A stretch of DNA of 64,000 bases. It comes from Escherichia phage naswa. Below are positions 21,985 through 34,788 of the stretch, one piece after another (positions within the stretch are counted from its first letter, which is position 1; each line of letters opens with the position of its first letter). A model generated the notes under the pieces. The model saw nothing but the letters and a program-made list of their open reading frames with translations. It did no database searches and was not told where the DNA came from. The stretch lies in the sequence record MN850595.1; one strand, given 5' to 3'. The position numbers and the translations under genes are program-made.

Positions 21985-22450
21985 GGGATTTCTAAAATGG
22001 ATTTCCTCCTTTTGATATTTCACCGGGCTGGATATTTTAAAATTCTTAGAAAATCAGAAAATGGATCGAAAACTAAAATGGATTTTTCAGAGTAGGCGCG
22101 ACAAGCTGAATAGCTCATCCTATCGTTTGCACCATATTCCAGACCACCATTATAGATTTCCCACACATGCTAACCTCCCTCTACTAGAACTTCCTCCACT
22201 TACCCTTGACCTTCTATGGTAACAATCTAACCACTATCTTGAAGTTGCGGTGCAGCTTTCCAGGTACTCGATCTACTTTTCATTTCAGGGCTTGGATTTT
22301 CTGAAAATTTTTCTCGATAAATTTCTCAGTACTCGATCTGTTTTTCGTTTTCTGAATCGGATTTTCTGGAAATCGTTCCGGATCTCGACCTGAAATTTTT
22401 GGGGACGAAATCTATTTTTCGTTTTCAGAAATGGATTTTTAAAATTTCTA
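21985..22450. repeat. Iteron-like direct repeats (AAAATGGATTT units) plus ~55-bp tandem repeats
   Basis: At least four AAAATGGAT(T/C) units and two to three copies of a GTACTCGATCT...GGATTTTCTG unit. Confidence 0.6.
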
Positions 22451-22916
22451 TATGGGAATATTTTATGGGGCACTGTTTTATAGGAAATTGTTACGGAGGG
22501 TAATTAGCATGCTAATTAAATTTATTAAATGCGAGGGATTCTTATTTAGAATTTTGAATGATAATTATTCTCGTTTGCAGAATAACGGGCAGGCCCGGTG
22601 ATTGTCTCCCGGCCCCTGCTGCCCCGGCTTGTTATTATAGTATCACACAGGACAAAGAAGGCAAGGATTTTTTGCATAAATTTTTAAATGATAATGATAA
22701 CCGTTCTCATTTTATGAAGCGCCCATCCCCGGTGGTTGTCTCCCCCGTCACCGGTGCCTGCCGTCCTTTCGATAGGTATATTATGCCGCCTGGCGGGGCC
22801 GCTGTCAACACTTTTCAAAAAATTTTTCTAACCTGATGCGCTAACCGTTGCAACCTGGCGGGGCCAGCCTGGCAGGTCCGCACTATAAAGTAAACAGCTA
22901 CAGAAGAGGTACAAAA

Positions 22917-23075
22917 ATGAAAGGTAATGCTACTCGCCTGGGAAATGTAGTGATTAATGATACGGAAGCTATCGCCCTGGTTGAAAAGGTTATGGCGGGA
23001 GCGTTGGAACATAAAGAAGAGTACGAAAAAATGGTGGTTAACCTGGCGGGGGGCGGCAGGTGGATTCTATCATAA
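22917..23075 (+). CDS. Small hypothetical protein
   Basis: ATG with AGAAGAGG RBS downstream of TATAAAGTAAAC-type promoter element. Confidence 0.4.
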   Translation: MKGNATRLGNVVINDTEAIALVEKVMAGALEHKEEYEKMVVNLAGGGRWILS

Positions 23076-23094
23076 AAATAATTTAAAATAGTCG

Positions 23095-23123
23095 TTGACA
23101 ACAAGGTTAATCATGGTATTATT
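23095..23123 (+). promoter_or_regulatory. Sigma70-like promoter (TTGACA-17-ATTATT)
   Basis: Consensus -35, reasonable -10; track ORF start coincides with -35 so true start taken downstream. Confidence 0.45.
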
Positions 23124-23172
23124 ACCCTACAAGGTGAACAACACCGCACTAACCAGTAAAGAGGATAAATTT

Positions 23173-23370
23173 ATGAACGCATACGGGATCAAAGTACGTC
23201 GCAACACTCGCCAGGTGGTCACCAATCAAGTGATTTGCCGGGTGGATGTAACCATCAACAACGGGCAAGGCCTTTATAAATTTCGTCGCGGTCATAGCTA
23301 TACCCTGCAACAGCTTAATCGTTGCGCCCTGACAAAAGGTCAGATCAACCACTGGTTTAATAAAAAATAA
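23173..23370 (+). CDS. Small hypothetical protein
   Basis: ATG with AAAGAGGA RBS. Confidence 0.45.
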   Translation: MNAYGIKVRRNTRQVVTNQVICRVDVTINNGQGLYKFRRGHSYTLQQLNRCALTKGQINHWFNKK

Positions 23371-23373
23371 GTA

Positions 23374-23402
23374 TTGACATACAGTCCGACACCAAATACA
23401 CT
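23374..23402 (+). promoter_or_regulatory. Sigma70-like promoter (TTGACA-17-TACACT)
   Basis: Consensus -35 and spacing; followed by CA-rich leader. Confidence 0.5.
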
Positions 23403-23434
23403 AAAAGCACAAAAGACACTAAGAGGATAAAATC

Positions 23435-23833
23435 ATGAAAACCACTACCTTTAATTTTGATAATGCAGACTTTTCTTTTTCTGATGTCAAGAACTGCCGC
23501 CGTGATCGTGGATTTTACAAGGCTTATAATCTGGTGGGCCTGGACGATGACAATAATTTGCACGAAGTAGCTGAGATCCGGTATTATGCCGCCGCCAGCG
23601 GGAACACTCACTACTGCGTGTTTTGGATTCACGACAACAAGAACAATAAGTACGGTTATACTGGCGGCAAGGCGAGCGGTCACGGTTACGATAAAGCTAA
23701 CGCAGCACTTGAGAGCGCATTAAATGCTATGGGGATCACTGCCGACGGCTGGATCTACGAAGAAGAGTTTTTGTCGGCACTTGCTGACCACCTGGGCTAT
23801 AAAAAACACATTGTAACATGCGCCCACGAATAA
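23435..23833 (+). CDS. Hypothetical protein
   Basis: 132 aa ORF with AAGAGGA RBS and own promoter. Confidence 0.55.
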   Translation: MKTTTFNFDNADFSFSDVKNCRRDRGFYKAYNLVGLDDDNNLHEVAEIRYYAAASGNTHYCVFWIHDNKNNKYGYTGGKASGHGYDKANAALESALNAMGITADGWIYEEEFLSALADHLGYKKHIVTCAHE

Positions 23834-23915
23834 AAATCATTGACACGCTGCAAAATTTAAGTAAACTAGACACAAAAGGCGGGAATGTTTCCCGCCAGCA
23901 CAAAGGAAAAAGATC

Positions 23916-24311
23916 ATGAATAAGAACGTACGCCGCATCATGAACGAACTGGCAAACGATGAAAAAATTATTGATATGCATTTGGTCAACATTTGCCGCC
24001 GTTGTGTAACATATAACAACCGCGCCGCAAAAGCGCGTGAGATGAACGCAAAAGGCACCTTAAAGCCCTTTCAGGTGGTTGTAAAATCTATAACTAGCGC
24101 AGCAGGCCAGGCGCAGGACCACAACAACGAGAGCGCTAATATTGATCCGTCTTACGTAATGAAACGGATCCGGACTTGCAAGAATAAAGAGCAGGTATAT
24201 AACGTCATAGATTGGCTGGACTCCCTGGGCGATGTGGTTTACAATAGGTTTTCTGCAGCTATCGAGATCCAGCTTGACAGATTGGACGGGAAAGTACTAA
24301 AAACTTATTGA
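23916..24311 (+). CDS. Hypothetical protein
   Basis: 131 aa ORF; leader hairpin GGCGGGAA-TGT-TTCCCGCC then CA-rich tract and RBS. Confidence 0.55.
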   Translation: MNKNVRRIMNELANDEKIIDMHLVNICRRCVTYNNRAAKAREMNAKGTLKPFQVVVKSITSAAGQAQDHNNESANIDPSYVMKRIRTCKNKEQVYNVIDWLDSLGDVVYNRFSAAIEIQLDRLDGKVLKTY

Positions 24312-24315
24312 GTTT

Positions 24316-24358
24316 ATTTTTAGATGGCCTTGACACCAGGGCCATCAATAAAGTAAAC
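24316..24358 (+). promoter_or_regulatory. Conserved ~45-bp promoter module, copy 1
   Basis: TTATTTTTAGATGGCCTTGACACCAGGGCCATCAATAAAGTAAAC; -35 TTGACA inside 7-bp inverted repeat GATGGCC/GGCCATC. Confidence 0.55.
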
Positions 24359-24391
24359 TAACCACAGTTGAGCGGAAAAGGGGGCTTAAAG

Positions 24392-24511
24392 ATGAGCACT
24401 ACACGCCAGCACACAAAGGTAACCATCATCGTTTGCATCATTGGGTACATCCTGGCGCAAATGTTGATGGGTAGCGCCAACGGTGTCGCAAAATTTTTCT
24501 TAAACTTTTAA
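24392..24511 (+). CDS. Small membrane peptide (39 aa), not in ORF track
   Basis: ATG after GGGGG RBS downstream of module promoter; hydrophobic core VTIIVCIIGYILAQMLMG. Confidence 0.35.
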   Translation: MSTTRQHTKVTIIVCIIGYILAQMLMGSANGVAKFFLNF

Positions 24512-24512
24512 T

Positions 24513-24540
24513 TGACAAGCTAACTTAAATCGATATAATA
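24513..24540 (+). promoter_or_regulatory. Sigma70-like promoter (TTGACA-16-TATAAT)
   Basis: Consensus hexamers upstream of 24591 gene. Confidence 0.55.
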
Positions 24541-24590
24541 AGCACATAAACGGGAAAACTTCCCAGAACACACAAAAGGAGAAAAACACC

Positions 24591-24932
24591 ATGACTACTA
24601 TGACCGCCTCAGAAAAAGCTATGCAGATCGCTGAACTGAAAAAACAGATCGCAGACCTTGAGAATAAGATCGATAACTTTGAAATCGACGAGGACAAGTA
24701 CGACGAAAACTATGATGAATGGTTAGACGAGATCTACGGCGAAATTATGATCGGAAACATTTCTTTTCTTCCGTCGCGTATCCTCAAGGAGCTAGATCCT
24801 ATCGCTTACCGCTGCGGATTTAGCGACTACATCGACAGCCTGGATATTGAGGACGATGAAGAATACCAGGAATTACAGACAGAGTTAGAAGAAGCAAAAG
24901 AAGAGCTTGCGGAGCTGGAAGAAAACGAGTAA
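24591..24932 (+). CDS. Highly acidic small protein (possible DNA mimic)
   Basis: 113 aa, Asp/Glu-rich throughout; own promoter and AAGGAGA RBS. Confidence 0.55.
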   Translation: MTTMTASEKAMQIAELKKQIADLENKIDNFEIDEDKYDENYDEWLDEIYGEIMIGNISFLPSRILKELDPIAYRCGFSDYIDSLDIEDDEEYQELQTELEEAKEELAELEENE

Positions 24933-24933
24933 G

Positions 24934-24976
24934 CTTATTTTTAGATGGCCTTGACACCAGGGCCATCAATAAAGTA
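24934..24976 (+). promoter_or_regulatory. Conserved ~45-bp promoter module, copy 2
   Basis: Near-identical to 24316-24358. Confidence 0.55.
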
Positions 24977-25021
24977 AACTTTATACTGTTAACACTGAAC
25001 TAATGCATAGGAGTTAAAACC

Positions 25022-25267
25022 ATGGCAGCACTAATCACCAAATATTATGCCCCTACCAACACCAAAAGCGCCCGTATCATGGTAAAAGGCTTCGGACGTA
25101 AAAAGGTGTACACCTGGGATTATGCCTTAGACACGGAAGACAACTACACCAACGCAATGACCGATTTTATTAATGAACTAAATAAGCAGATCTTGACAAG
25201 TTATAAAGTGACCGATATTGCTTATATAGGTGAAGGCGGGATCTGTTTTGTAGGCATTGTGAAATAG
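25022..25267 (+). CDS. Hypothetical protein
   Basis: 81 aa ORF with AGGAG RBS. Confidence 0.5.
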   Translation: MAALITKYYAPTNTKSARIMVKGFGRKKVYTWDYALDTEDNYTNAMTDFINELNKQILTSYKVTDIAYIGEGGICFVGIVK

Positions 25268-25310
25268 TTATTTTTTCGGTGGTCCTGGTTGCAGGGCCAT
25301 CTATAAAGAT
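25268..25310 (+). promoter_or_regulatory. Promoter module, diverged copy
   Basis: T-run, GGTCCTG/CAGGGCC inverted repeat around TTGCAG, then CTATAAAGATAAT. Confidence 0.4.
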
Positions 25311-25341
25311 AATTTATTAACACCATGAAAGGAGAAAGTAC

Positions 25342-25695
25342 ATGATCAGCGGGGCAAGTTTTATTATTGGCGCTATTGCTACGGCTTTAATTGTAAATAA
25401 GATCCAGGATAAAAAGGAAAGAGGAAGTACCGCCCTTGCAGAATATCCATTTTGGGCATTCAACGATAACGAAGATTATATTATAAAGTATAAAAATAAA
25501 GAAGGTGACCAAGTAACACCGCGACCGATCCCGGCTTACAAAATGCAGGAAACACTATACCGCCTGGAGGCGGGAGGCGCAAAAATTGTAGACTTTTGGG
25601 GATACGACCACACAGATCAGGAAGTTATAAAGCGCCGTATCCGGGCTATTCAGGCCAATATTGAAGTTAGCAAGGGGGGAATATATGAAAATTAA
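25342..25695 (+). CDS. Hypothetical membrane-anchored protein
   Basis: N-terminal TM helix; GGAGA RBS. Confidence 0.5.
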   Translation: MISGASFIIGAIATALIVNKIQDKKERGSTALAEYPFWAFNDNEDYIIKYKNKEGDQVTPRPIPAYKMQETLYRLEAGGAKIVDFWGYDHTDQEVIKRRIRAIQANIEVSKGGIYEN

Positions 25696-25882
25696 TTTCG
25701 AGAAAATTGTAAAGCGCCCTCATGATTCCGAAGAGCTGCCAGAACGCCGCCAGCGTAACAATAAACTGAATAAGCCAAAAAGGTTTGGGAAGATCTGGCG
25801 TAATCATTATGATCGTAAATTGCCCGGCCTACTTTTGGAACGTGAACGACAGGCAGAACGATACCGCCATAAAGACAAATAA
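25685..25882 (+). CDS. Small basic protein
   Basis: Lys/Arg-rich 65 aa; GGGGGA RBS; followed by terminator. Confidence 0.4.
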   Translation: MKINFEKIVKRPHDSEELPERRQRNNKLNKPKRFGKIWRNHYDRKLPGLLLERERQAERYRHKDK

Positions 25883-25890
25883 CAACCAAC

Positions 25891-25918
25891 GCCCCGCCAT
25901 TGTGCGGGGCTTTTTATT
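25891..25918 (+). terminator. Rho-independent terminator
   Basis: GCCCCGC-cattgt-GCGGGGC followed by TTTTTATTT. Confidence 0.65.
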
Positions 25919-26063
25919 TCTATCCTACGAATAGCGCCCCTGGTTGGCCCCACAAACGCCACAAAAGCCCCTACCTATGCAATCCCCTTTCTTGACCTGA
26001 AAACAACGTCTAGGGCCGTTTTATGGCGTTAAAAATATTATTGACAGTGATTTTATTCAAAGC

Positions 26064-26092
26064 TTGACACCTTGGAATAGTCCGGATATACT
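26064..26092 (+). promoter_or_regulatory. Sigma70-like promoter (TTGACA-17-TATACT)
   Basis: Consensus hexamers; second TTGACA lies 20 bp upstream. Confidence 0.5.
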
Positions 26093-26123
26093 AACCACAT
26101 CAAAGCAAGAAGGAGTAAACGCC

Positions 26124-26384
26124 ATGCGTAAATTAAAAAATTTTGATAAAGTAGATGTTGTCCTGAATAATTTTTACTACTGCAATAATAAAGCCGTTTG
26201 GTGGCGTGATAGTTCCACCGATAAAGTTAAAGCGCGCTTTCTCCAGGGGCACTGGCAAGGCCGCCCAGTGATTAAAATCTTAGGGCAATTGGTAGCGTTT
26301 AAAAATTGCCACCGTGTTGACGACGTTGAAGATATTTTGAACATTTTACGCCACAATAATTTAAAAAATAGTGTTGACAAGTAA
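26124..26384 (+). CDS. Hypothetical protein
   Basis: ATG after AAGGAG RBS. Confidence 0.5.
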   Translation: MRKLKNFDKVDVVLNNFYYCNNKAVWWRDSSTDKVKARFLQGHWQGRPVIKILGQLVAFKNCHRVDDVEDILNILRHNNLKNSVDK

Positions 26385-26401
26385 GCCTCAATAAGTATAC
26401 T
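26374..26401 (+). promoter_or_regulatory. Sigma70-like promoter (TTGACA-16-TATACT)
   Basis: Consensus hexamers overlapping end of upstream gene. Confidence 0.5.
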
Positions 26402-26458
26402 TAAACACACAGGCGGGAAAACTTCCCGCCACTAACAAAGAAAATAGGAGAAAATATC

Positions 26459-27082
26459 ATGACCACCGTTAACATTACTACAGGTTACAATTTATCTTTC
26501 GACGTGCTGACCGACGAACAAAAAGAAAAAGCCGTTGAAATGGTCCGCGAAAGAGAAGAACACAGCGGGGATAATTTTTTTGCAGAAAGTGTAATTGAAT
26601 ACTATAAAGAATATGTTTTTCCAGAGTATGGCCTTGAAGATACCGAAGTACATTGGTCAGGCTTTTGGTGCCAGGGTGACGGCGCGTCAATCAGTGCGGA
26701 AAACGTGGATTTAGAAAAATTCTTGCGTAAAGTAAAGGCCCTGACCAAGTTCCGATCAATTCGTCACTTGTTCGGCACAATGCACGATGGCGAGCTATCC
26801 GCAAGTGTTGAGCGTGATCCATATAGCCGCTATAGTCACGAAAACACTGTAAGCGGGTACATCGATACTACATGGCTAGACCTGACCGCCAAACAAGAAA
26901 ATAAAGTGGAAGATCTGGAAGAGCTGATCACCGAGACGGTACGGGAGCTATCCCGCAAGGTTTACGTAGACCTGGAGGAGGCCTATCTTGAGCAATTTAC
27001 CGCCGAAAACTTGATCGGCCTTATCGAGGCAAATGATTGGCGGTTTGATGTGGATGAGCATGGCGAGATGAGTTTTTCATAA
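26459..27082 (+). CDS. Hypothetical protein (largest of the early small-gene array, 207 aa)
   Basis: Leader hairpin GGCGGGAA-AAC-TTCCCGCC then CA-rich tract and AGGAGA RBS; no recognisable motif. Confidence 0.55.
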   Translation: MTTVNITTGYNLSFDVLTDEQKEKAVEMVREREEHSGDNFFAESVIEYYKEYVFPEYGLEDTEVHWSGFWCQGDGASISAENVDLEKFLRKVKALTKFRSIRHLFGTMHDGELSASVERDPYSRYSHENTVSGYIDTTWLDLTAKQENKVEDLEELITETVRELSRKVYVDLEEAYLEQFTAENLIGLIEANDWRFDVDEHGEMSFS

Positions 27083-27171
27083 ATAAAGTGTTGCAATAAT
27101 CTAAAAACCTGCTATATTAAAACTCAAGGGGCAAGACGTTTGCCCCCACACAAAACAAAGAGGAAAACATC

Positions 27172-27552
27172 ATGAAAAACACTACTAAAGCTATTGACAC
27201 CGTCATGTTTAACCTGGTTACATTCCGTGAAGATATGAAAGATCTTCCTCGTGAAACAGTGTGCGACCATATCGAAAACTATCGCAAACTAATCAAAGAG
27301 TTGCCTTTAAAACGTGATCAATATGCGGCTAACGCCATGCTTAATGCCATGATCAAAAAGATGATCCAGTGTGATTTAACCCTGGCCTATGATTATGCAG
27401 GCGGTCGTTTTGCAGTATACAATCAGCCCGTGCCCGGTATGAGCACCACCGAAGAATTGCACGCGCTCAATCTAAAACAAGACGTGTGGGATAGTATGCC
27501 TCGCGTGGTGGTATGGGTAGAAAGCGGAAAGATTTACGGCGATAATTTTTAA
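27172..27552 (+). CDS. Hypothetical protein
   Basis: 126 aa ORF with own promoter, leader hairpin and AAGAGGA RBS. Confidence 0.55.
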   Translation: MKNTTKAIDTVMFNLVTFREDMKDLPRETVCDHIENYRKLIKELPLKRDQYAANAMLNAMIKKMIQCDLTLAYDYAGGRFAVYNQPVPGMSTTEELHALNLKQDVWDSMPRVVVWVESGKIYGDNF

Positions 27553-27616
27553 TCAGGTAGCAGGCGGCATATTTGCCGCCTTATTGTTAATCAGAACTGT
27601 AAAAGAGGTACATAGA

Positions 27617-27988
27617 ATGGAATTTATTATTTTGGCTGTATTTGTTGCCTTGTTCAACGCCTGGATCGCTGGCAAGATGGGTAGATCCGCCTTTTTATGG
27701 TTTATTATATCTATTTTCCTGGGGGTGGTTGCAACTATTGTACTTGTTATCCTTGCAATTGTTGACAAGGGGAATAATAGAAAGGGTAAAGTATTTTCAG
27801 ACCTGTACGACGCTCAAACGTTTGTCAACGCCTATTATAGTGATCTTCCAGTCTCCCTACGCTGCAGCCTGGCACAACAAGTTTTCGATGAGGCTAAAAC
27901 CAGAGATCAAGCCCATGAGATATGTTTAACTGAGGCGGATCGCCTATTTGAGAGGAATAGAAAATATGTGGGCCAACCGTTTAAATAA
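27617..27988 (+). CDS. Hypothetical membrane protein
   Basis: Two predicted TM helices; ATG after AAGAGG RBS. Confidence 0.5.
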   Translation: MEFIILAVFVALFNAWIAGKMGRSAFLWFIISIFLGVVATIVLVILAIVDKGNNRKGKVFSDLYDAQTFVNAYYSDLPVSLRCSLAQQVFDEAKTRDQAHEICLTEADRLFERNRKYVGQPFK

Positions 27989-28187
27989 TGCCACATTAAT
28001 TAATCCCTTTAGTGAAGATTTGAAGCCAGCCGCCTGGCGTGATGGATTCAATAACGAACGCTTTATTTTCAAGCCTGATCTTGAGGAATTTTATAACAAT
28101 GGATCGAACAACGACAGAGATAATTTTTCTTGTGGTGTGCGTAGTGATGGTACTCCTGGGGGCCATTGTAAACCACGTCACTACTAA
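27966..28187 (+). CDS. Hypothetical protein
   Basis: ATG after GAGAGGAA; overlaps upstream gene end. Confidence 0.4.
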   Translation: MWANRLNNATLINPFSEDLKPAAWRDGFNNERFIFKPDLEEFYNNGSNNDRDNFSCGVRSDGTPGGHCKPRHY

Positions 28188-28207
28188 CAGGGGGAAAGGG
28201 GGAGACG

Positions 28208-28327
28208 ATGACACCCAAGGATAAGCCCCGCACCGATAAGGCGCGCCGTGTTATGGTATGGCTTGAGATCATCGCCCTTGAAATATTGTTAGGGGTAGGG
28301 ATGTACTTTATCGCTGTAAGTAACTAA
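28208..28327 (+). CDS. Small membrane peptide (39 aa), not in ORF track
   Basis: ATG after GGGGGAG RBS; hydrophobic C-terminal half; followed by terminator. Confidence 0.35.
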   Translation: MTPKDKPRTDKARRVMVWLEIIALEILLGVGMYFIAVSN

Positions 28328-28330
28328 GAA

Positions 28331-28360
28331 CGGCCCCCCGATCATGGGGGCCTATCTTTT
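28331..28360 (+). terminator. Rho-independent terminator
   Basis: GGCCCCC-cgatcat-GGGGGCC followed by T-rich tract. Confidence 0.6.
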
Positions 28361-28464
28361 AAAAAAATTCTTCCGGGGTGTTGCAATCCGGTCCGGAATG
28401 TGGATAATAACAATCAACGGGGAGCTAATCCCCACCACCACAAAAACCAGAAAGGAGAAACAAA

Positions 28465-28665
28465 ATGAGCAACAATATCCGCGTTATTAACTTCAAAAAA
28501 GAAGAAAAAATTGCCGTGCTGATTGACGGTCAAGAAATCTTCAAGGGCGACTATGAAGATCATCAAACGGCGATTAGTATCACTCGCGTGATTGGTTACC
28601 ATAATTTTTACCCCCAAGGCGCTGAGGCAGCGGTTAAACGAATCAAAGAGATTGTAGGCCTGTAA
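28465..28665 (+). CDS. Hypothetical protein
   Basis: 66 aa ORF; leader hairpin, CA-rich tract, AAGGAGA RBS. Confidence 0.5.
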   Translation: MSNNIRVINFKKEEKIAVLIDGQEIFKGDYEDHQTAISITRVIGYHNFYPQGAEAAVKRIKEIVGL

Positions 28666-28667
28666 AA

Positions 28668-28710
28668 TTTATTTTTAGATGGCCTTGACTCCAGGGCCAT
28701 CAATAAAGTA
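28668..28710 (+). promoter_or_regulatory. Conserved ~45-bp promoter module, copy 3
   Basis: TTATTTTTAGATGGCCTTGACTCCAGGGCCATCAATAAAGTAAAT, one mismatch in -35. Confidence 0.5.
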
Positions 28711-28759
28711 AATTTAAACCCTGTTAAAAATACCACGCAGTTAACAAGGAGTGATAGAC

Positions 28760-29059
28760 ATGTTTATCCAGGCTAATAATCTTTATTTCTTTGATGGTCA
28801 GATCGTAGACGGCGTGGAGGTGGAAATCACCGGGTGCCCTGGCGGTCAGGTTATGACTTTTCGGAATAATGCCTTTGATGATTCTCATATCGTTATGAGA
28901 ATGGAAGTTAGTAAGCTGGATGACAAGAAAACACTTATCGACTATTCCGTCAAAGATCATCCAGACTACCACATGATCTATGGTGATTTGTGCATTGTTG
29001 ACCGTGACAAGGTTGGCGGCATTGTGATCGCTATTGTGAACGATGTTTTCTCAAACTAA
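28760..29059 (+). CDS. Hypothetical protein
   Basis: ATG after AAGGAG RBS. Confidence 0.5.
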   Translation: MFIQANNLYFFDGQIVDGVEVEITGCPGGQVMTFRNNAFDDSHIVMRMEVSKLDDKKTLIDYSVKDHPDYHMIYGDLCIVDRDKVGGIVIAIVNDVFSN

Positions 29060-29076
29060 TTTCAGCAGGTAATTTT

Positions 29077-29427
29077 ATGAAAGTAAAACTATATTACCTT
29101 AATGAGCTTAACCCCCTTGCCCAGGTCCGCGCCCTGGCTAATACCTTGATTTGTGAGAAATCTGTATATTGTGTTGAGCTTAACGCCATGCGTGAACGTC
29201 TCAAAGGTGGTTACTTTGACATCCATGCTGCAATCAACGGCCTGAATATAGAATTTATCCGCTTACGTAACAGCCGCCAGAATCTGGCAAGAATGGAACA
29301 AGATCCGGCCCACCTTCGTAAGCTGGTTATTGAAAATCATCTGATGTTTAATGCCGATGGTGATTATTACCATTTTCACCGTAAACGCTGGTACCGTAGC
29401 GGCAATATAGGAAAGAATGCAAAATAA
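29077..29427 (+). CDS. Hypothetical protein
   Basis: 116 aa ORF. Confidence 0.5.
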   Translation: MKVKLYYLNELNPLAQVRALANTLICEKSVYCVELNAMRERLKGGYFDIHAAINGLNIEFIRLRNSRQNLARMEQDPAHLRKLVIENHLMFNADGDYYHFHRKRWYRSGNIGKNAK

Positions 29428-29462
29428 GGCCCCTGGCAGGGCCTGCAGCGATATAATCACAT

Positions 29463-29496
29463 AAAGGCTATGCGGTTGCATAGCCTTTATTATTTT
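29463..29496 (+). terminator. Rho-independent terminator
   Basis: 11-bp stem AAAGGCTATGC-ggtt-GCATAGCCTTT followed by ATTATTTT. Confidence 0.65.
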
Positions 29497-29633
29497 GGCG
29501 TTACAGCGGCCCCCAAGGCGCTTAAAAAATTTTTAAAGAAGTACTTGCATCAAGTCCTACAATATGGATAATAAAGGGTGTCGGGGGGCGGTGAGGCCTC
29601 CAATCATTAACCGGATAGATAGGAGTTAAAACC

Positions 29634-29918
29634 ATGGCTATTGTTACCGTTGGCGATGTAGTGGAAATGGAAGCAAAATACTTAAAAGCGGGTATGCATA
29701 TCCTACGCAACGATCTTGAACTAGTCCTGACAATGGTTGACTATAACCCAGGGCAAGATTATCCAAGCATCGACTACTTTTTTGAGTATGTTGATGAAGA
29801 GTTGAAAGAGGATGAGGCCTATTGCGGTGAGTTCTGCAATTTCTTTTGTCCTGATGAGGTTGTAAAGGTTATCTATCAACCTGGCGTACCTTTCCCGCTG
29901 CACGCTATCAATAAATAA
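29634..29918 (+). CDS. Hypothetical protein
   Basis: 94 aa ORF with AGGAG RBS and upstream promoter-like TTGCAT/GATAAT. Confidence 0.5.
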   Translation: MAIVTVGDVVEMEAKYLKAGMHILRNDLELVLTMVDYNPGQDYPSIDYFFEYVDEELKEDEAYCGEFCNFFCPDEVVKVIYQPGVPFPLHAINK

Positions 29919-29981
29919 ACCTGGTGGGGCCGAAAAGGCCCCCTCCTGAAACTATGAAAAAATAAAGAGAGGTAAATCATC

Positions 29982-30215
29982 ATGATGGAACAAATTAAAC
30001 GCGCTGAGTCTATTAATGGCAATGTGATCTATTTTGTCAGCAAAAACGAAAAAGGCGTACCATATGCGGCGGTAATAGTACAACCTGACGGCGATTATTG
30101 GTTTACTGTATACGGATCTTATTCTTTCGGGCGTCCGGTTCATGATAGAATTTTGAAAGTAGCAAATCCGACCGGGAAAAATATCACAGCAGAAAAATTT
30201 TTTGAAAATAGTTGA
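29982..30215 (+). CDS. Hypothetical protein
   Basis: 77 aa ORF with AGAGAGG RBS. Confidence 0.5.
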   Translation: MMEQIKRAESINGNVIYFVSKNEKGVPYAAVIVQPDGDYWFTVYGSYSFGRPVHDRILKVANPTGKNITAEKFFENS

Positions 30216-30239
30216 CATGACCATATAAGACTGTAATAT
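30212..30239 (+). promoter_or_regulatory. Sigma70-like promoter (TTGACA-16-TAATAT)
   Basis: Consensus -35 overlapping upstream stop codon. Confidence 0.5.
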
Positions 30240-30291
30240 ATAAATCAAAGGGGGGCAACAAGCCCCACCAACCACAAAGAGGATAAAAATC

Positions 30292-30471
30292 ATGGCTATT
30301 ATTGCAAAGACTGAGATCGTAGGCTTAGATTCTATTCTCCTCGCATATGAGGAAGCTATAGAAATGTATGTGGTTTCCTATGGTGAGTATATTCGTGAAT
30401 ATAAATCTATTGATCTGGCTTTTGAATGTTATATTCGCCAGGTAAATAAAGCATATGATGATTATCGTTAA
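30292..30471 (+). CDS. Small hypothetical protein (59 aa), not in ORF track
   Basis: ATG after AAAGAGGA RBS, leader hairpin GGGGGC-aaca-GCCCC. Confidence 0.45.
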   Translation: MAIIAKTEIVGLDSILLAYEEAIEMYVVSYGEYIREYKSIDLAFECYIRQVNKAYDDYR

Positions 30472-30477
30472 AATAGT

Positions 30478-30505
30478 TTGACAACAATTACAAATCGGGT
30501 AGAAT
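30478..30505 (+). promoter_or_regulatory. Sigma70-like promoter (TTGACA-16-TAGAAT), paralogous module 1 of 3
   Basis: Consensus hexamers; downstream leader GTATTTCGTAGGGCGG shared with the 30970 module. Confidence 0.5.
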
Positions 30506-30556
30506 GTATTTCGTAGGGCGGCAATGATGCCGCTCACAACTAAAAGAGAGATCATC

Positions 30557-30751
30557 ATGGCGCTTAAAAAACTAACAAGCAATACTCGTTGGGATGAAAT
30601 CGACGGGGAAGTTTACATTTTTGCCCGTAAACCAGGGGATCAAAAATGGTCAAAGGCTTTTACTTGCCATCCTGCAACAATAGATCTGATAAAAAGTCAA
30701 GGACTACGTGAAGCAGTAGCAAGAAGTTTACTGATCCCTTGTAAAAATTAG
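30557..30751 (+). CDS. Small hypothetical protein
   Basis: ATG after AAAGAGAG RBS. Confidence 0.45.
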   Translation: MALKKLTSNTRWDEIDGEVYIFARKPGDQKWSKAFTCHPATIDLIKSQGLREAVARSLLIPCKN

Positions 30752-30752
30752 T

Positions 30753-30780
30753 TTGACAACAGTCAACAATCTGGTAAAGT
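30753..30780 (+). promoter_or_regulatory. Sigma70-like promoter (TTGACA-16-TAAAGT), paralogous module 2 of 3
   Basis: AGTTTGACAACA shared with module 1. Confidence 0.5.
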
Positions 30781-30828
30781 GTACTACATAGCGCGGGAAT
30801 ACTTCCCGCCATTAATGAGGGTAATTTA

Positions 30829-30966
30829 ATGAAAACTTTCAACGCAACAGCCTCGACAATTGGTTATATTATTACAGTACAAGCCGTGGATCTGGTAGCA
30901 GCAGCAAACAAGATTAAAAAGATGATTCCGCCAGGTAGTGAATTTTCCGTTTGGGAAGTAAAATAA
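30829..30966 (+). CDS. Small hypothetical protein (45 aa), not in ORF track
   Basis: ATG after TAATGAGGGTA RBS context shared with next gene. Confidence 0.4.
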   Translation: MKTFNATASTIGYIITVQAVDLVAAANKIKKMIPPGSEFSVWEVK

Positions 30967-30969
30967 ATC

Positions 30970-30997
30970 TTGACAATAGTTTATTACTTGATAGACT
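30970..30997 (+). promoter_or_regulatory. Sigma70-like promoter (TTGACA-16-TAGACT), paralogous module 3 of 3
   Basis: Consensus -35; leader duplicates that of module 1. Confidence 0.5.
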
Positions 30998-31049
30998 GTA
31001 TTTCGTAGGGCGGGGCAATAAGGCAACGCCCATTAATGAGGGTAGAATC

Positions 31050-31154
31050 ATGTTAGAGAAAATTTTCACGGTTGTAGTAGTTGGCCTGGCATTATCGGTT
31101 GGAGTGGTTGCAACTATGGCTAACATGATCCTATCTTCCCACGGTATCGGTTAA
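31050..31154 (+). CDS. Small membrane peptide (34 aa)
   Basis: ATG after AATGAGGGTAGAA RBS; single hydrophobic helix. Confidence 0.35.
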   Translation: MLEKIFTVVVVGLALSVGVVATMANMILSSHGIG

Positions 31155-31164
31155 GGTGAATCAA

Positions 31165-31380
31165 ATGATCACGAATAAGACAGGTAAAACAGAATTTTTA
31201 CGCGGCTTGCAAATAGGTAAGCCTGAGATCTGGCATTGCACTAAAACACCACGTGACGAAATGAAAGACTTCACCGCCACGCTGCAACGGGTAAAGATAT
31301 CCATCACGCAGAAAAAGGCCTTGATAGTGGTGGAAGGTGAGATCCCTCAAACCGTTGTTATAGTTGAGCGTACAGCATAG
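31165..31380 (+). CDS. Hypothetical protein
   Basis: ATG after AAGGTG RBS. Confidence 0.45.
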   Translation: MITNKTGKTEFLRGLQIGKPEIWHCTKTPRDEMKDFTATLQRVKISITQKKALIVVEGEIPQTVVIVERTA

Positions 31381-31471
31381 TTTAATTTATAGCGATACCT
31401 GAAAATTAACCAATAAATCATAAACAGGCGGTTACCGCCGCCTTAAACGTAGCAGAAAGAGGCTAGACACA

Positions 31472-31756
31472 ATGAAAAAGATGATCGCAGTAGTTGCCCT
31501 GGTTGTTGGACTTAATGCGCCTGTAATGGCTAAAGAGCTGGCAAAAGAGGTTAATCTAACGGATATCCATGCCGTCAATAAAATCGGGGTTACTTATCGC
31601 TTATGCCTTGCCGCTAAAACTTTTAATGACGGCACAACAGAGTACTACGGATTCGAGGGTATCCGGTGCGGTGAGCTTGCTCGCGACCTTAAGGAAGATC
31701 CAGACCTGGAAGATCTGCCCATCACCGTAAACGGTAAAGCTTACGTAAACCGTTAA
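31472..31756 (+). CDS. Small secreted protein (signal peptide)
   Basis: N-terminal MKKMIAVVALVVGLNAPVMA signal peptide; AGAGG RBS; leader hairpin GGCGG-tta-CCGCC. Confidence 0.55.
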   Translation: MKKMIAVVALVVGLNAPVMAKELAKEVNLTDIHAVNKIGVTYRLCLAAKTFNDGTTEYYGFEGIRCGELARDLKEDPDLEDLPITVNGKAYVNR

Positions 31757-31905
31757 CCGTGAAAAAGATAATCATTACCTTGGGGATTGTGGCGGGATCG
31801 CTGGCGCTCTTTCCCCTTATGGTTAGATATGTGCTGATCAGTATTGTCCTGGTGGTCAGTGATCTACTAGAAACGGTTGGCACCTTGTTTTAAAGAGCGA
31901 TAAAA

Positions 31906-32097
31906 ATGAATGTTGAACAAGTTAGAAAGGTATTGGCGGTACTGCGTTATCATAATCATAGAAAGGTCATAGACGATCCTGATTATGTTGATTCAAGTCT
32001 GGAAGAGGATACACTACAAGCCATAAGTAACATGCAAGAATTGCTAAAGCGCATGACAGAGAAAAACCGACCGGACTACATAGGCGAAAAAATATAA
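31906..32097 (+). CDS. Hypothetical protein
   Basis: 63 aa ORF, weak RBS. Confidence 0.4.
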   Translation: MNVEQVRKVLAVLRYHNHRKVIDDPDYVDSSLEEDTLQAISNMQELLKRMTEKNRPDYIGEKI

Positions 32098-32225
32098 TCC
32101 TTATTAACTAGAAAACAGGGCTTGCAATGGTCCTGTTTTTTGTTATACTTATTACACGGCAGGCACCTGGCGACGGGGGGAGACAATCACCGGGCCTGCC
32201 TGTCATATAAGAACTATAAAAACCG

Positions 32226-32254
32226 TTGACATCTGCCAGGTGGTGGGGTAACAT
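32226..32254 (+). promoter_or_regulatory. Sigma70-like promoter (TTGACA-17-TAACAT)
   Basis: Consensus -35 and spacing. Confidence 0.45.
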
Positions 32255-32308
32255 TTATCTTGAAGGGGCAAAAGTGCCCACACAACAACCAGAAGAGAGG
32301 AAAACATT

Positions 32309-32581
32309 ATGTCAAGCTGGATTAATCAAGAAGTCGAATCACGTTTTAATGCTATTTGGGATCTCATCGAAAAAGAGGACGGAACATCAAGCCCTTATCT
32401 CAATAATCTTGAATTCCATTTCGTGGAAGCGATGAACGCAGAACATGATCACGAAGGTGGTGCGGATGAGTTCGCTAAAGGGTATGGCTTCAACAATGCC
32501 AACGAAATGATCGAGGCGGTTGTACTCCAGGCTGAGGAAGATTATCAATTAAAAACGCTTGAATTCTGCCGCCGTAAGTAA
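32309..32581 (+). CDS. Hypothetical acidic protein
   Basis: 90 aa ORF; leader hairpin GGGGCA-aaag-TGCCC, CA-rich tract, AGAGAGGAAAA RBS. Confidence 0.5.
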   Translation: MSSWINQEVESRFNAIWDLIEKEDGTSSPYLNNLEFHFVEAMNAEHDHEGGADEFAKGYGFNNANEMIEAVVLQAEEDYQLKTLEFCRRK

Positions 32582-32641
32582 TAAGATAATGACACGGGCC
32601 AAAAGGCCCACTAATCAGAACCACACAAAGAGAGAAAGAAA

Positions 32642-32860
32642 ATGACAACCCGTAAAATTAAAGTTGTTTGCATTGAATCGACTGGGGGCGCTTTTGTAGT
32701 TGGTCAGGAATATAATGCGGTTTTAATGGGTACGGATTGGAAGGTTAAAGGCCTTAATGGTTACGAGTACGGCACTACTTGCGGCTTGCGTGGTCGAATC
32801 GGATACGTGAGTTTAGACAATAAAGAAAAATTTGTTTTCGACACCGTTGTGAGTAAATAG
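32642..32860 (+). CDS. Hypothetical protein
   Basis: 72 aa ORF; leader hairpin GGGCC-aaaa-GGCCC then CA-rich tract. Confidence 0.5.
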   Translation: MTTRKIKVVCIESTGGAFVVGQEYNAVLMGTDWKVKGLNGYEYGTTCGLRGRIGYVSLDNKEKFVFDTVVSK

Positions 32861-32938
32861 CATGAATTGCTAAAGACTGATCTGCGAACTGCTGTATTAT
32901 CAACTAATCAAAACGAACCGCATAAAGAGGAAAACATC

Positions 32939-33202
32939 ATGAAACGTCTGGATCAGCTTAAATTAGTTCAGTACATGGCCTACAGAATTCTTGAAGTCCA
33001 AAAAGGTAGCAAAAAAGAGGTTTGCGAGAAAGCTTATAAGATCTTTACTCGCAAAAAAGATGACTGGATGCTACGCCAGACCAAAAAATCCGATATCCTG
33101 GGGTACCTGGAAGAAGAGATCCGGCTTGAAGAACAAGAAGAGATCCGCCGCAGTGAGGCAGATTATCAGGCAGCTTGGGAAAACTGGATGAGCAACAAAT
33201 AA
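32939..33202 (+). CDS. Hypothetical protein
   Basis: ATG after AAAGAGGAAAA RBS. Confidence 0.5.
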   Translation: MKRLDQLKLVQYMAYRILEVQKGSKKEVCEKAYKIFTRKKDDWMLRQTKKSDILGYLEEEIRLEEQEEIRRSEADYQAAWENWMSNK

Positions 33203-33268
33203 TACAACAAGTTACGGTCAGGGGGGTAATAAAGCCCCTTGATCACATAAAAATTATGCTATCCCTGG

Positions 33269-33297
33269 TTGACAGGGATCGGCAGTTTTGCTATATT
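33269..33297 (+). promoter_or_regulatory. Sigma70-like promoter (TTGACA-17-TATATT)
   Basis: -35 embedded in inverted repeat ATCCCTG/CAGGGAT. Confidence 0.5.
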
Positions 33298-33346
33298 CTT
33301 TTTTGAAGGGGAGTTGTAAGAAAATTAACTAAGAGGTAAAAACACC

Positions 33347-33766
33347 ATGAACATTAAATCTAATAATCCGGCATATAGCTTTGATAACGCTTTTTGTCAC
33401 GGTCCGGCGGCGAAAGGATTCGAAATCGATGGTAAACTAATTATTGTCAATGTTGACGGGGAAGAGGTTGCAGTATATCCGGTGGCAGACGTTAAAAGCC
33501 GTCTACAATGCCGCATGGATGTTACCGCCTATCAGCTTGATCCGGTCCGCATAGTTGCCCTGGTCCTGGAAGAAGAAATTAAAGCCATGCACCATAGCAA
33601 CAGATTTATTGGTGACGCGCAGGATAATATGAAAGTATGCCGCCATAAAGTTAATGAAGTGCTTAAAGAGTACGGCTATAAAGATCTTATGATCAAACGC
33701 GAGGAAAAATTCCGCTACCGTAACGACCTGGCAAATCGGATTTTTGAAATATACGAATCATTATAA
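33347..33766 (+). CDS. Hypothetical protein
   Basis: 139 aa ORF with AAGAGG RBS; last gene of plus-strand block. Confidence 0.55.
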   Translation: MNIKSNNPAYSFDNAFCHGPAAKGFEIDGKLIIVNVDGEEVAVYPVADVKSRLQCRMDVTAYQLDPVRIVALVLEEEIKAMHHSNRFIGDAQDNMKVCRHKVNEVLKEYGYKDLMIKREEKFRYRNDLANRIFEIYESL

Positions 33767-33783
33767 TTTTTTAACTGAATTAT

Positions 33784-33810
33784 CAAGGGGCTTAGGCCCC
33801 TTTCTTTTTG
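33784..33810 (+). terminator. Rho-independent terminator
   Basis: AAGGGGC-tta-GCCCCTT followed by TCTTTTTG. Confidence 0.6.
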
Positions 33811-34429
33811 TCTGCTCTTCCCCCCCTACCATAAACGGCCCTACCTGGCAAGTGGAATAATTGACGAGCCATCAATCCCACACACTGTACAAATATACAT
33901 GGAAAATAACTATTGCATAATTTTTCATTGTGTGGTAGCAAGGCCATTTTTACCCGTTTTACCTTCCAAAATTGCACGTAATGCCGCTATTGCACAAATT
34001 TTAACCTGATGCACATCTCCAATATCTTGTCAACAACTAAAAATCTTTATAAGTCATGCACTTACATAACCACAAAAGCGTGTTCTACGTGAAAAATCGA
34101 GTATAACTATAGCCGCCAGATCTCAGAATTTACGTACGCTCACCAGTCTATAGCCTGCTAAGTATTTATTCCAACCATAGAATAACGGAATAGTCAATAC
34201 CTGCATAAAATAATTATTCGTGTAAACTGCATAACATAAATCGGCTAGGATGTCAACATTTTTCGTAAACAGCTCGAAATTATAACGGTGAGTTATAATA
34301 AACAGAGAAATCTTTAGTCGTCTAATGTTTACTGTACATTACTATACTGACTGGAATCATTAGATGACTAAGAGAAAGATAAGAAATCATTAACAATGCA
34401 ATTGTTTTATTCGTAACAATAAGGCAACT

Positions 34430-34680
34430 ATGCAAACGAATGGCATGGCGCGACGGAGTCGCGACATAATATAAAAGCAGTAACCATCACCCCCGTGATA
34501 GTTTGTCTGCAAACTATTAATCAGATCATAGTTGCCTTGTATTTAGTTAATCATGACATAACAAGCAGGGCAACTATAGATCTGCTAATAGTTGCCCTGC
34601 TTTTATATTATGTCATGCTAATTATAATCAGTGCGATTATTGTCATGTATAATTATTGTCATGCAAACGAATGGCATGGC
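34430..34680. repeat. 20-bp direct repeat ATGCAAACGAATGGCATGGC (34430-34449 and 34661-34680) flanking a nested ~64-bp palindrome (34553-34616)
   Basis: Exact 20-bp repeat 231 bp apart; ATGACATAA...GCAGGGCAACTAT-10 nt-ATAGTTGCCCTGC...TTATGTCAT; ATTATTGTCATG also repeated. Confidence 0.6.
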
Positions 34681-34692
34681 TGATTATCGGTG

Positions 34693-34788
34693 TGTAAACA
34701 GTCAATCATGTAAATGGTTAGCATGTGAACAATCAGGAATGTAAACAATCCAGTGTGTAAACTAATAGGTGTGTAAAAGTGTCATGTT
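34693..34788. repeat. Six tandem iterons with 16-bp periodicity (core TGTAAAC)
   Basis: TGTAAAC/TGTAAAT/TGTGAAC units starting at 34693, 34709, 34724, 34740, 34756, 34772. Confidence 0.65.

Follow-up and report, generated by a model that had tools for sequence, protein, structure and literature searches.

The genome of Escherichia phage naswa (sequence record MN850595.1), a Vequintavirus, carries an array of 32 small genes read in one direction, numbered here g1 to g32, ten of which are headed by the same arrangement of a promoter, a short GC hairpin and an A/C-rich leader. What does this recurring element do, and how is it related to the gain, loss and exchange of the genes behind it? The array was analysed within a stretch of 64,000 nucleotides (nt) of the naswa sequence (the window), in which the segment 22,860-33,810 matches phage EmilHeitz (Bas49) over its full length at 99.7% identity and many other Vequintavirus genomes at 93-97%; window position 1 corresponds to EmilHeitz position 60,868. 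The evidence presented below indicates that the array is probably a hyperplastic accessory-gene region made up of self-contained cassettes with a 5' hairpin, which would drive strong early expression and double as recombination joints.

The full element, termed class A, consists of a promoter, a GC hairpin, an A/C-rich tract and a Shine-Dalgarno sequence, and it precedes ten open reading frames (ORFs): g4, g6, g11, g12, g16, g21-g24 and g29 (Table 1). The stem is 5-9 bp long and begins 9-12 nt past the -10 hexamer in 10/10 window cassettes. Among 39 cassettes from three genera, the core stem starts ~10 nt after the -10 (6-12 nt for stems of minimum free energy, MFE). The loops vary from 3 to 6 nt and their sequence is not conserved. 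The tract between hairpin and Shine-Dalgarno sequence is 81% A+C (A 46.5%, C 34.9%, G 8.5%, T 10.1%) and differs from the composition of the whole region (A 32.5%, C 19.4%, G 23.0%, T 25.1%; each p <= 6e-4), so that the CA-rich tract described in a first-pass annotation of this DNA is borne out. That annotation also placed a hairpin at the 5' end of the predicted transcripts in general; this description fits the ten class A promoters and applies to that subset only, with a second class of hairpins lying over the -35 hexamer.

A covariance model of the cassette (R1) was built from 39 cassettes of three phages, namely the naswa window, Schickermooser (Phapecoctavirus) and phi92. When run with filters off on the 64-kb window, R1 gave E < 0.01 for the ten array cassettes only, and on the remaining 76 kb of the ~140-kb EmilHeitz genome it found nothing at that threshold. 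Across eight sources (the window and seven related loci) the model recovered 73 copies, all on the coding strand, and a BLAST search with one cassette matched only Vequintavirinae and Stephanstirmvirinae-type records. The cassette is more uniform in the Schickermooser and phi92 arrays, where TTGACA-N16/17-TAnnnT-GTATCACATAG is followed by the stem (GGCGGGAA-loop-TTCCCGCC or GGGCGGCA-loop-TGCCGCTC) and then by a purine- or A/C-rich leader. No Rfam family reached the gathering threshold anywhere in the 64-kb window, and a permissive search of 22.0-36.5 kb returned one chance-level match (E = 0.7). Promoters elsewhere in the window have leaders of 20-26 nt without a hairpin. A comparison of leader folding energy between array and non-array promoter-like sites gave a weak difference (p = 0.03), many of the non-array sites being intragenic.

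The structure of the hairpin is conserved and its sequence is not. Covariation was computed on a model-guided alignment of 64 distinct cassettes, with 500 shuffles and six slid controls, and 81.6% of stem cells pair in this set. Two-sided changes that keep the pair occupy 48 cells, compared with 20.3 +/- 3.2 in shuffles (0 of 500), and the covariation score is 0.232 versus 0.111 in shuffles and at most 0.10 in the slid controls. Pair 48-60, for example, is GC in 32 cassettes and CG in 17, and pair 49-59 is AU in 47 and GC in 10. One stem position is G.T in 16/64 cassettes, a pairing more in keeping with an RNA helix than with a symmetrical DNA site. RNAalifold predicted no structure on a plain MAFFT alignment of the 39 cassettes because the stems are out of register in that alignment. 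Independently of the model, the stem upstream of orthologous g12 keeps its place but is different in each of three lineages, and a fourth, more distant relative has no stem there; the search of viral contigs with g12 returned 5 loci only.

How do these cassettes relate to the shuffling of the genes? The array was compared with six Vequintavirus relatives and two Stephanstirmvirinae, and 34 of the 40 unique homology breakpoints fall in spacers or at most 12 nt from a gene end (expected 31%, p = 1.7e-12). In phage YP-6, which is without g21 and g11, the first junction lies between two -35 hexamers (30217 joined to 30478) and the second between the g11 and g12 promoters (26376 joined to 27081). 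The genes of Schickermooser stand in another order, with the g23 match ahead of the g22 match and those to g20, g21 and g30 at other places. Between the g24 cassette of naswa and the cassette that drives the g22 homologue in Schickermooser, the promoter halves are 98% identical while the downstream halves are unrelated (33%), and two more chimeric pairs have promoter halves 93% and 95% identical and downstream halves at 31% and 42%. Such chimeric cassettes imply crossovers in the shared start region and hairpin. The g18 insertion/deletion runs from gene end to gene end and is without a cassette. Array genes share 84-92% nucleotide identity with Stephanstirmvirinae; for the primase/polymerase segment one record lies at 80-90% identity, and the other matches below 90% all lie at 60-80%. 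The comparison points to a recent exchange of array genes between Vequintavirinae and Stephanstirmvirinae.

The promoters of the array were scored out of 12 against the consensus TTGACA-N16-18-TATAAT. At least 10/12 positions match at 15 sites on the + strand and at none on the - strand, compared with 2.1 +/- 1.5 (maximum 7) in 200 dinucleotide shuffles. All but one of the 15 (14/15) are intergenic with the -10 at 31-57 nt before the start codon, and the 20 nt upstream of the -35 (17 promoters) are 74% A+T versus 58% for the region. The first-pass annotation had assigned a promoter to nearly every ORF, and although the number of promoters is far above chance, only 17/32 ORFs have their own at >=9/12; some seven ORFs have a spacer but no good promoter, and eight start at most 20 nt behind the preceding gene. 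Likewise, its view that several genes end in intrinsic terminators is supported by six hairpin-plus-U-tract terminators on the + strand, after g9, g12, g15, g18, g28 and g32, whereas its view that most genes are independent transcription units is not: since there are only six such terminators, transcripts from successive promoters run to shared 3' ends and are nested. The immediate-early organisation that it proposed is consistent with the host-type promoters, the variable gene content and the absence of the rV5 late-promoter motif from all array spacers. Judging from the promoter type and this lack of a late motif, the genes would be read early by unmodified host RNA polymerase with sigma-70. 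A literature search found no transcriptome, start-site map or functional or phenotype study of the region in Vequintavirinae.

In phage rV5, the counterpart of the array lies at the distal end of a long transcription unit, '10-1-238-164'. The promoter and terminator map is already known for rV5, the 2013 rV5 paper having tabulated eight promoters (P164, P168, P174, P185, P186, P192, P194 and P195) and four terminators (t164, t177, t181 and t184) within the array; the leader hairpin, the CA-rich leader and the cassette repeats are unmentioned there. What is new is a cassette family confined to the array and common to two subfamilies, a hairpin with compensatory changes, and the proposed role as a recombination joint.

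We propose the following sequence of events. Host sigma-70 RNA polymerase would start at each promoter soon after infection and, with the usual spacing of 6-8 nt after the -10, the hairpin would begin ~2-5 nt from the transcript 5' end; the observed stem geometry fits such a position relative to the predicted start. The hairpin would then form a 5'-terminal stem-loop that hinders attack by RppH and by 5'-end-dependent RNase E, and would keep the unstructured A/C-rich leader and the ribosome-binding site free from pairing with the ORF that follows. At the DNA level, the conserved 40-70 nt cassettes would provide short homologies through which recombination could delete, insert, reorder and exchange single genes, also between subfamilies. 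RppH and the 5' sensor of RNase E both require unpaired 5' ends, and mRNAs of E. coli are stabilised by secondary structure at the 5' end (PMC3997798); from this we infer, with slightly less than even confidence, that the hairpin serves as a 5'-terminal stabiliser and insulator.

Other explanations of the hairpins must be weighed. One is that they are terminators or attenuators that limit read-through from upstream, each gene being expressed mainly from its own promoter, a function proposed and in part demonstrated for the PeSL (promoter-early stem-loop) cassettes of T4-like phages discussed below. The stem-loop of PeSL211/210 cut lacZ expression about as much as rrnB T1, several of the present hairpins are labelled terminators in the EdH4 and related records, and hairpins also occur in the promoterless spacers before g20 and g26. 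However, class A hairpins lie at a fixed distance downstream of their own promoter and would stop their own transcript; moreover, they are followed by A/C-rich sequence with 0-3 T in 9 nt, compared with 5-8 T for the six real terminators, which leaves this explanation unlikely. A mirror image of the same idea, in which the hairpins serve the opposite strand as antisense terminators that stop transcription entering the array, draws on a terminator scan that listed eight array leader or intergenic hairpins (six of class A) as terminator-like on the - strand, such as 26430-26412 followed by TGTGTGTTTA and 23896-23878 followed by TTTTGTGTCT. Yet the array has no - strand promoter at >=10/12, the convergent - strand genes end 2.4 kb away, and the cassette flank in Stephanstirmvirinae (GTATCACATAG) is not T-rich in antisense, so that we give an antisense role hardly any credence. 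Alternatively, the inverted repeat could be a DNA operator for a dimeric phage or host regulator that shuts off the whole set after the early phase. The repeat is indeed a palindrome with constant spacing from the -10 that extends into the predicted start region, where repressor sites are classically found; only one co-regulated gene set carries the element, and a putative transcriptional regulator and an anti-sigma factor (the latter annotated in EmilHeitz) are encoded at other places in the genome. An operator is nevertheless highly improbable: the arms differ between cassettes and stay complementary (GGCGGGAA, GGGGCAA, GGGGA, GGGCGGCA and GGGCC), the compensatory changes are well above shuffle expectation, the loops vary in length, and the G.T at one stem position breaks the DNA palindrome and not the RNA helix.

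A further explanation concerns the cargo and is compatible with recombining cassettes: the array could be a host-takeover or anti-defence island in which the cassettes serve only for immediate expression of inhibitors. Small genes behind host-type promoters, presence that varies among close relatives, exchange between subfamilies, six acidic products, several membrane peptides and a homologue of the T7 early protein gp1.1, with no match to virion or housekeeping proteins, all agree with it. On the other hand, no product matches a characterised anti-defence or host-inhibitor family, the largest (g11) is without a characterised structural relative, a literature search found no toxicity, escape or expression data, and accessory early genes may equally act in superinfection exclusion or metabolism, or have no measurable effect. 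We regard such an island as possible, with the balance somewhat against it, and early, dispensable, host-directed functions for the 32 proteins as a sensible guess.

Several observations weigh against the proposal of recombining cassettes with a protective 5' hairpin. The place of the hairpin in the transcript is deduced from promoter geometry, and the hairpin is not universal: seven array promoters and all promoters elsewhere in the genome are without it, so early expression in itself does not require it. Hairpins stand before g20 and g26 in spacers without a recognisable promoter, the class B hairpin overlaps the -35 and would not sit at a 5' end, and one PeSL stem-loop gave strong termination in a reporter assay. 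With regard to covariation, the alignment was fitted to the structure and the sequences are related, and the slight excess of G.U cells (24) over A.C/C.A cells (18) leaves the strand of action unsettled. Finally, the enrichment of breakpoints in spacers is partly expected because intragenic crossovers are lost to selection.

The proposal can be carried one step further, to a dedicated portable gene-cassette system of rV5-like and phi92-like phages, in which single early genes would move between co-infecting phages of the two subfamilies via mini-circles of the PeSL type or short-homology crossovers, the hairpin being both the crossover site and an RNA tag that exempts the transcript from RNase E decay. 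T4 Srd stimulates RNase E. A homologue of Srd is reported in the rV5 paper and, speculatively, phage-boosted RNase E decay would make a protective 5' tag sensible. We consider this extended version unlikely.

Besides class A, a 49-nt direct repeat (class B) occurs in four copies, upstream of g5, g7, g8 and g17, with a hairpin that encloses the -35; hairpins that enclose or overlap a -35 number five or six in all, with g32 and perhaps g1 added. A leader hairpin is present at g19, g26 and g30, where the promoter is weak or missing. Class A hairpins were also considered as intrinsic terminators and failed the definition on their missing U-rich tract (0-3 T in 9 nt). The records of EdH4 (3871-3885 and 10218-10236) and phage ASO2A label some leader hairpins as terminators despite the lack of a U tract. 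Within the g28 terminator hairpin lies a promoter, TTGCAA-16-TATACT, followed by a strongly structured element of ~60 nt (MFE -24 kcal/mol, z = -3.1; promoter and element together at 32122-32215, +). A similar 45-nt copy lies inverted at ~22720-22810 (-), behind an 11/12 promoter at 22808, so that the two bracket g1-g28; EmilHeitz annotates a 29-residue ORF over the + copy. The pair has no Rfam match and could represent small RNAs or an inversion substrate.

What do the genes encode? The first-pass annotation had recognised about 30 small ORFs of 34-207 amino acids (aa), and 32 of this size were found on the + strand between 22,917 and 33,766, a Shine-Dalgarno match preceding 30/32. The PHROG scan covered 30 ORFs (g24 and g27 were left out), and every one matched a family (E <= 2e-27), which identifies them as conserved, real phage genes; all of these families are of unknown function. 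Scans against Pfam (30 ORFs) and NCBIfam (the ten largest products) gave a single match above threshold, between g9 and Phage_1_1, the family of T7 gp1.1, a T7 early protein of unknown function; NCBIfam gave none. The earlier statement that no product is recognisable thus stands for nearly all of them, with g9 as the exception. Its description of acidic, secreted and tiny membrane products also agrees with our results, in which six products have an isoelectric point (pI) of 4.1-4.5, the N-terminus of g26 resembles a signal peptide, and g5, g15, g24 and g27 encode small hydrophobic peptides. Matches of most products to virion or housekeeping proteins would have spoken against a host-directed array, and none matched in the Pfam, PHROG and NCBIfam scans; nor are the rV5 equivalents named among virion proteins in the text of the rV5 paper. 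The profile search against anti-defence families that had been suggested at the outset yielded no match to such a family or to a host inhibitor (Pfam, NCBIfam, PHROG and solved-structure searches as run). The sequences of g11, g3 and g32 matched none of the solved structures, and a confident structure model of g11 (predicted local distance difference test, pLDDT, 87) found no characterised structural relative of its fold. The g11 motifs SGFWxQGDGAS and RYSHEN are invariant, and homologues with ~60% identity occur on E. coli contigs of 350-360 kb. Annotations in other records, namely 'YeeU-like antitoxin', 'acetyltransferase', 'phosphonoacetaldehyde hydrolase' and 'holin', were unsupported by the searches made here.

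Homopolymer lengths differ between naswa and EmilHeitz at 23025, 24376, 25674 and 29582. The A-run at 23025 falls inside g1, the G-run at 25674 leaves g8 and g9 separate in naswa and fused as a 179-aa ORF in EmilHeitz, and the difference at 29582 falls in the g19 leader hairpin; these differences may be sequencing errors or real tract variation. Outside the array, sigma-70-like promoters at >=10/12 occur throughout window positions 1-22,000 and 36,000-64,000, mostly on the coding strand of each block, with four + matches beyond 36 kb and two - strand matches near 21-23 kb as the off-strand exceptions. Just ahead of the array, three tandem-like repeats of 65-74 nt (22254-22440) overlie the tiny annotated ORFs bas49_0102 and bas49_0103, which may perhaps not be genes. 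On the far side, 33,810-36,200 corresponds to a 'non-coding' box on the rV5 map, the database records of many relatives are opened there, and four ATAGTTGCC(C/T)TG motifs lie in inverted pairs at 34414-34605.

Table 1. Coordinates of the features in the naswa window. Promoter scores are matches out of 12 to the consensus; bits are scores under covariance model R1.
Feature	Position	Strand	Details
Replication genes (rIIA/B, helicases, primase, DNA polymerase)	1-22,000	+	
Array of small accessory genes	22,837-33,810	+	32 ORFs in six terminator-bounded blocks; ~rV5 genes 195 down to 164
Gene-free stretch	33,810-36,200		2.4 kb between converging gene blocks
Small genes and nucleotide-metabolism genes	36,200-64,000	-	converging on the array
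Class A of g4	23840..23915	+	promoter 10/12; hairpin 23878-23896 (GGCGGGAA-TGT-TTCCCGCC); CA tract; Shine-Dalgarno; 53.8 bits
Class A of g6	24512..24590	+	promoter 12/12; hairpin 24551-24566; 45.9 bits
Class A of g11	26374..26458	+	promoter 11/12; hairpin 26412-26430; 54.1 bits
Class A of g12	27091..27171	+	promoter 9/12 (TTGCAA); hairpin 27128-27146; 33.4 bits
Class A of g16	28381..28464	+	promoter 9/12; hairpin 28419-28433; long CA tract; 23 bits
Class A of g21	30212..30291	+	promoter 10/12; hairpin 30250-30269; 48.1 bits
Class A of g22	30478..30556	+	promoter 11/12; hairpin 30516-30535; 64.1 bits
Class A of g23	30753..30828	+	promoter 10/12; hairpin 30793-30809; 69.3 bits, best match
Class A of g24	30970..31049	+	promoter 10/12; hairpin 31008-31031; 49.6 bits
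Class A of g29	32226..32308	+	promoter 10/12; hairpin 32266-32279; long CA tract; 35.7 bits
Class B of g5	24311..24359	+	hairpin 24323-24346 encloses -35
Class B of g7	24932..24980	+	98% identical to 24311-24359
Class B of g8, degenerate	25266..25314	+	71% copy; hairpin 25278-25301
Class B of g17	28666..28714	+	94% copy; hairpin 28678-28701
g2 promoter	23095..23122	+	TTGACA-16-TATTAT, 11/12; no hairpin
g3 promoter	23374..23402	+	10/12; short CA-rich leader, no hairpin
g10 promoter	26064..26092	+	11/12; no hairpin
g32 promoter	33261..33297	+	11/12; hairpin 33261-33279 overlaps -35
g19 leader hairpin	29583..29601	+	weak promoter upstream
Hairpin before g20	29926..29942	+	GGGGCC-GAAAA-GGCCCC; no promoter, no U tract
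g26 leader hairpin	31427..31439	+	no recognisable promoter
g30 leader hairpin	32596..32609	+	GGGCC-AAAA-GGCCC; weak promoter TTGAAT-17-TAAGAT
Terminator after g9	25891..25919	+	8 T in 9 nt past stem
Terminator-like hairpin after g12	27562..27588	+	rV5 t184
Terminator after g15	28332..28360	+	rV5 t181
Terminator after g18	29461..29496	+	rV5 t177; second hairpin ahead at 29427-29444
Terminator after g28	32112..32144	+	recurrent homology breakpoint (32106 / 32138)
Terminator after g32	33785..33809	+	closes the array; rV5 t164
g1	22917..23075	+	52 aa; PHROG 21957, E 2e-27; unannotated in EmilHeitz; Shine-Dalgarno site; weak, degenerate promoter
g2	23173..23370	+	65 aa; pI 11.0
g3	23435..23833	+	132 aa; PHROG 7028
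g4	23916..24311	+	131 aa; basic
g5	24392..24511	+	39 aa; hydrophobic peptide
g6	24591..24932	+	113 aa; pI 4.1; coiled coil suggested by sequence
g7	25022..25267	+	81 aa
g8	25342..25695	+	117 aa; N-terminal segment hydrophobic
g9	25685..25882	+	65 aa; T7 gp1.1 homologue; PF08200, E 2.6e-11, 44.2 bits (Pfam score), cut-off 21; overlaps g8 end
g10	26124..26384	+	86 aa; basic
g11	26459..27082	+	207 aa, largest; pI 4.5; absent from phage YP-6
g12	27172..27552	+	126 aa; present also in phi92 (gp227) and Phapecoctavirus
g13	27617..27988	+	123 aa; membrane protein; EmilHeitz label 'putative holin', unsupported by searches here
g14	27966..28187	+	73 aa; overlaps g13 end
g15	28208..28327	+	39 aa; membrane peptide
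g16	28465..28665	+	66 aa
g17	28760..29059	+	99 aa; pI 4.5
g18	29077..29427	+	116 aa; neither spacer nor promoter of its own; missing from Mangalyan, typing phage 4, ECML-10
g19	29634..29918	+	94 aa; pI 4.2
g20	29982..30215	+	77 aa; 91.7% nucleotide identity to phi92 gp247; elsewhere in Phapecoctavirus array
g21	30292..30471	+	59 aa; pI 4.4; missing from YP-6
g22	30557..30751	+	64 aa; PHROG 20168; unannotated in EmilHeitz; homologues in Phapecoctavirus and phi92
g23	30829..30966	+	45 aa
g24	31050..31154	+	34 aa; membrane peptide
g25	31165..31380	+	71 aa; start 10 nt after g24
g26	31472..31756	+	94 aa; N-terminus resembles signal peptide
g27	31759..31893	+	44 aa; membrane peptide; GTG start in naswa, ATG in EmilHeitz
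g28	31906..32097	+	63 aa
g29	32309..32581	+	90 aa; pI 4.4
g30	32642..32860	+	72 aa; absent from 5/6 Vequintavirus relatives; 90.9% nucleotide identity to Phapecoctavirus Schickermooser
g31	32939..33202	+	87 aa
g32	33347..33766	+	139 aa; last gene of the array; conserved in Phapecoctavirus

The immediate gain from these results is modest, the promoters and terminators having been tabulated before and the proteins being uncharacterised. If the proposal of recombining cassettes is correct, the covariance model would nonetheless offer a handle on fast-evolving early accessory genes, which are natural candidates for host-takeover or counter-defence screens, an approach analogous to the discovery guided by regulatory sequences in archaeal viruses. 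The cassette would also be a compact natural expression module for E. coli that appears to suit many unrelated ORFs.

How does the array compare with known systems? As in lambda nut, a short GC hairpin lies just past an early promoter, and some of the array loops are A-rich (GAAAA, AAAA); a nut or boxB identity was rejected, as the array loops are not conserved, boxA is missing and many promoters are involved instead of two. Integron arrays, too, line up small single-gene units in one direction, and these units are exchangeable and accompanied by imperfect inverted repeats. Integron attC sites are much longer than the 13-24 nt of the array repeats, however, the array units have their own promoters, exchange resembles homologous recombination, and no integrase was found among annotated or scanned products, so that an attC-like identity was also rejected. 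In the T7 class I and T4 early clusters, as presumably in the array, host RNA polymerase transcribes a group of small genes that are mostly dispensable, and g9 is a homologue of gp1.1. The early genes of T7 form a single RNase III-processed transcript from three promoters, whereas many array genes have their own promoter, and stems of only 5-9 bp are not of RNase III size, for which reason RNase III sites were discarded as an explanation. A 5' stem-loop of the stabilising type is found in the T7 gene 10 leader. The stem-loops in the 5' untranslated regions of ompA and papA (PMC3997798) resemble the array in having a hairpin near the presumed 5' end, an unstructured leader and a strong ribosome-binding site. 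In contrast to all three of these leaders, the array element is a repeated family that heads at least ten genes.

Among described systems, the array comes nearest to the PeSL cassettes of T4-like phages (Arbiol et al. 2010, PMC2839356; Comeau et al. 2014, PMC4122927), for which a literature search returned only these two T4 papers and two passing mentions, with descriptions in T4-like phages only. PeSLs combine an A/T-rich tract, a near-consensus sigma-70 promoter, a G/C stem-loop and a Shine-Dalgarno sequence, and are repeated upstream of small ORFs of unknown function. They are concentrated in the most variable (hyperplastic) genome segment, their stem-loop may lie over the -35, downstream of the -10 or at other positions relative to the promoter, and the boundaries of insertions/deletions, replacements and gene displacements among relatives coincide with the cassettes. 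All of these sequence-level defining features are found in the array. The differences are that its phages are Vequintavirinae and Stephanstirmvirinae, not T4-like, and that one architecture dominates, in which a stem ~10 nt after the -10, presumably transcribed, is followed by the A/C-rich leader. Furthermore, the array stems have no U tract and separate true terminators exist, and whereas terminator activity and mini-circles have been shown for PeSLs, the array cassettes are known from sequence alone. If our proposal holds, the PeSL idea would extend to a second, unrelated group of large coliphages, which would suggest that such cassettes are a general solution for large virulent phages.

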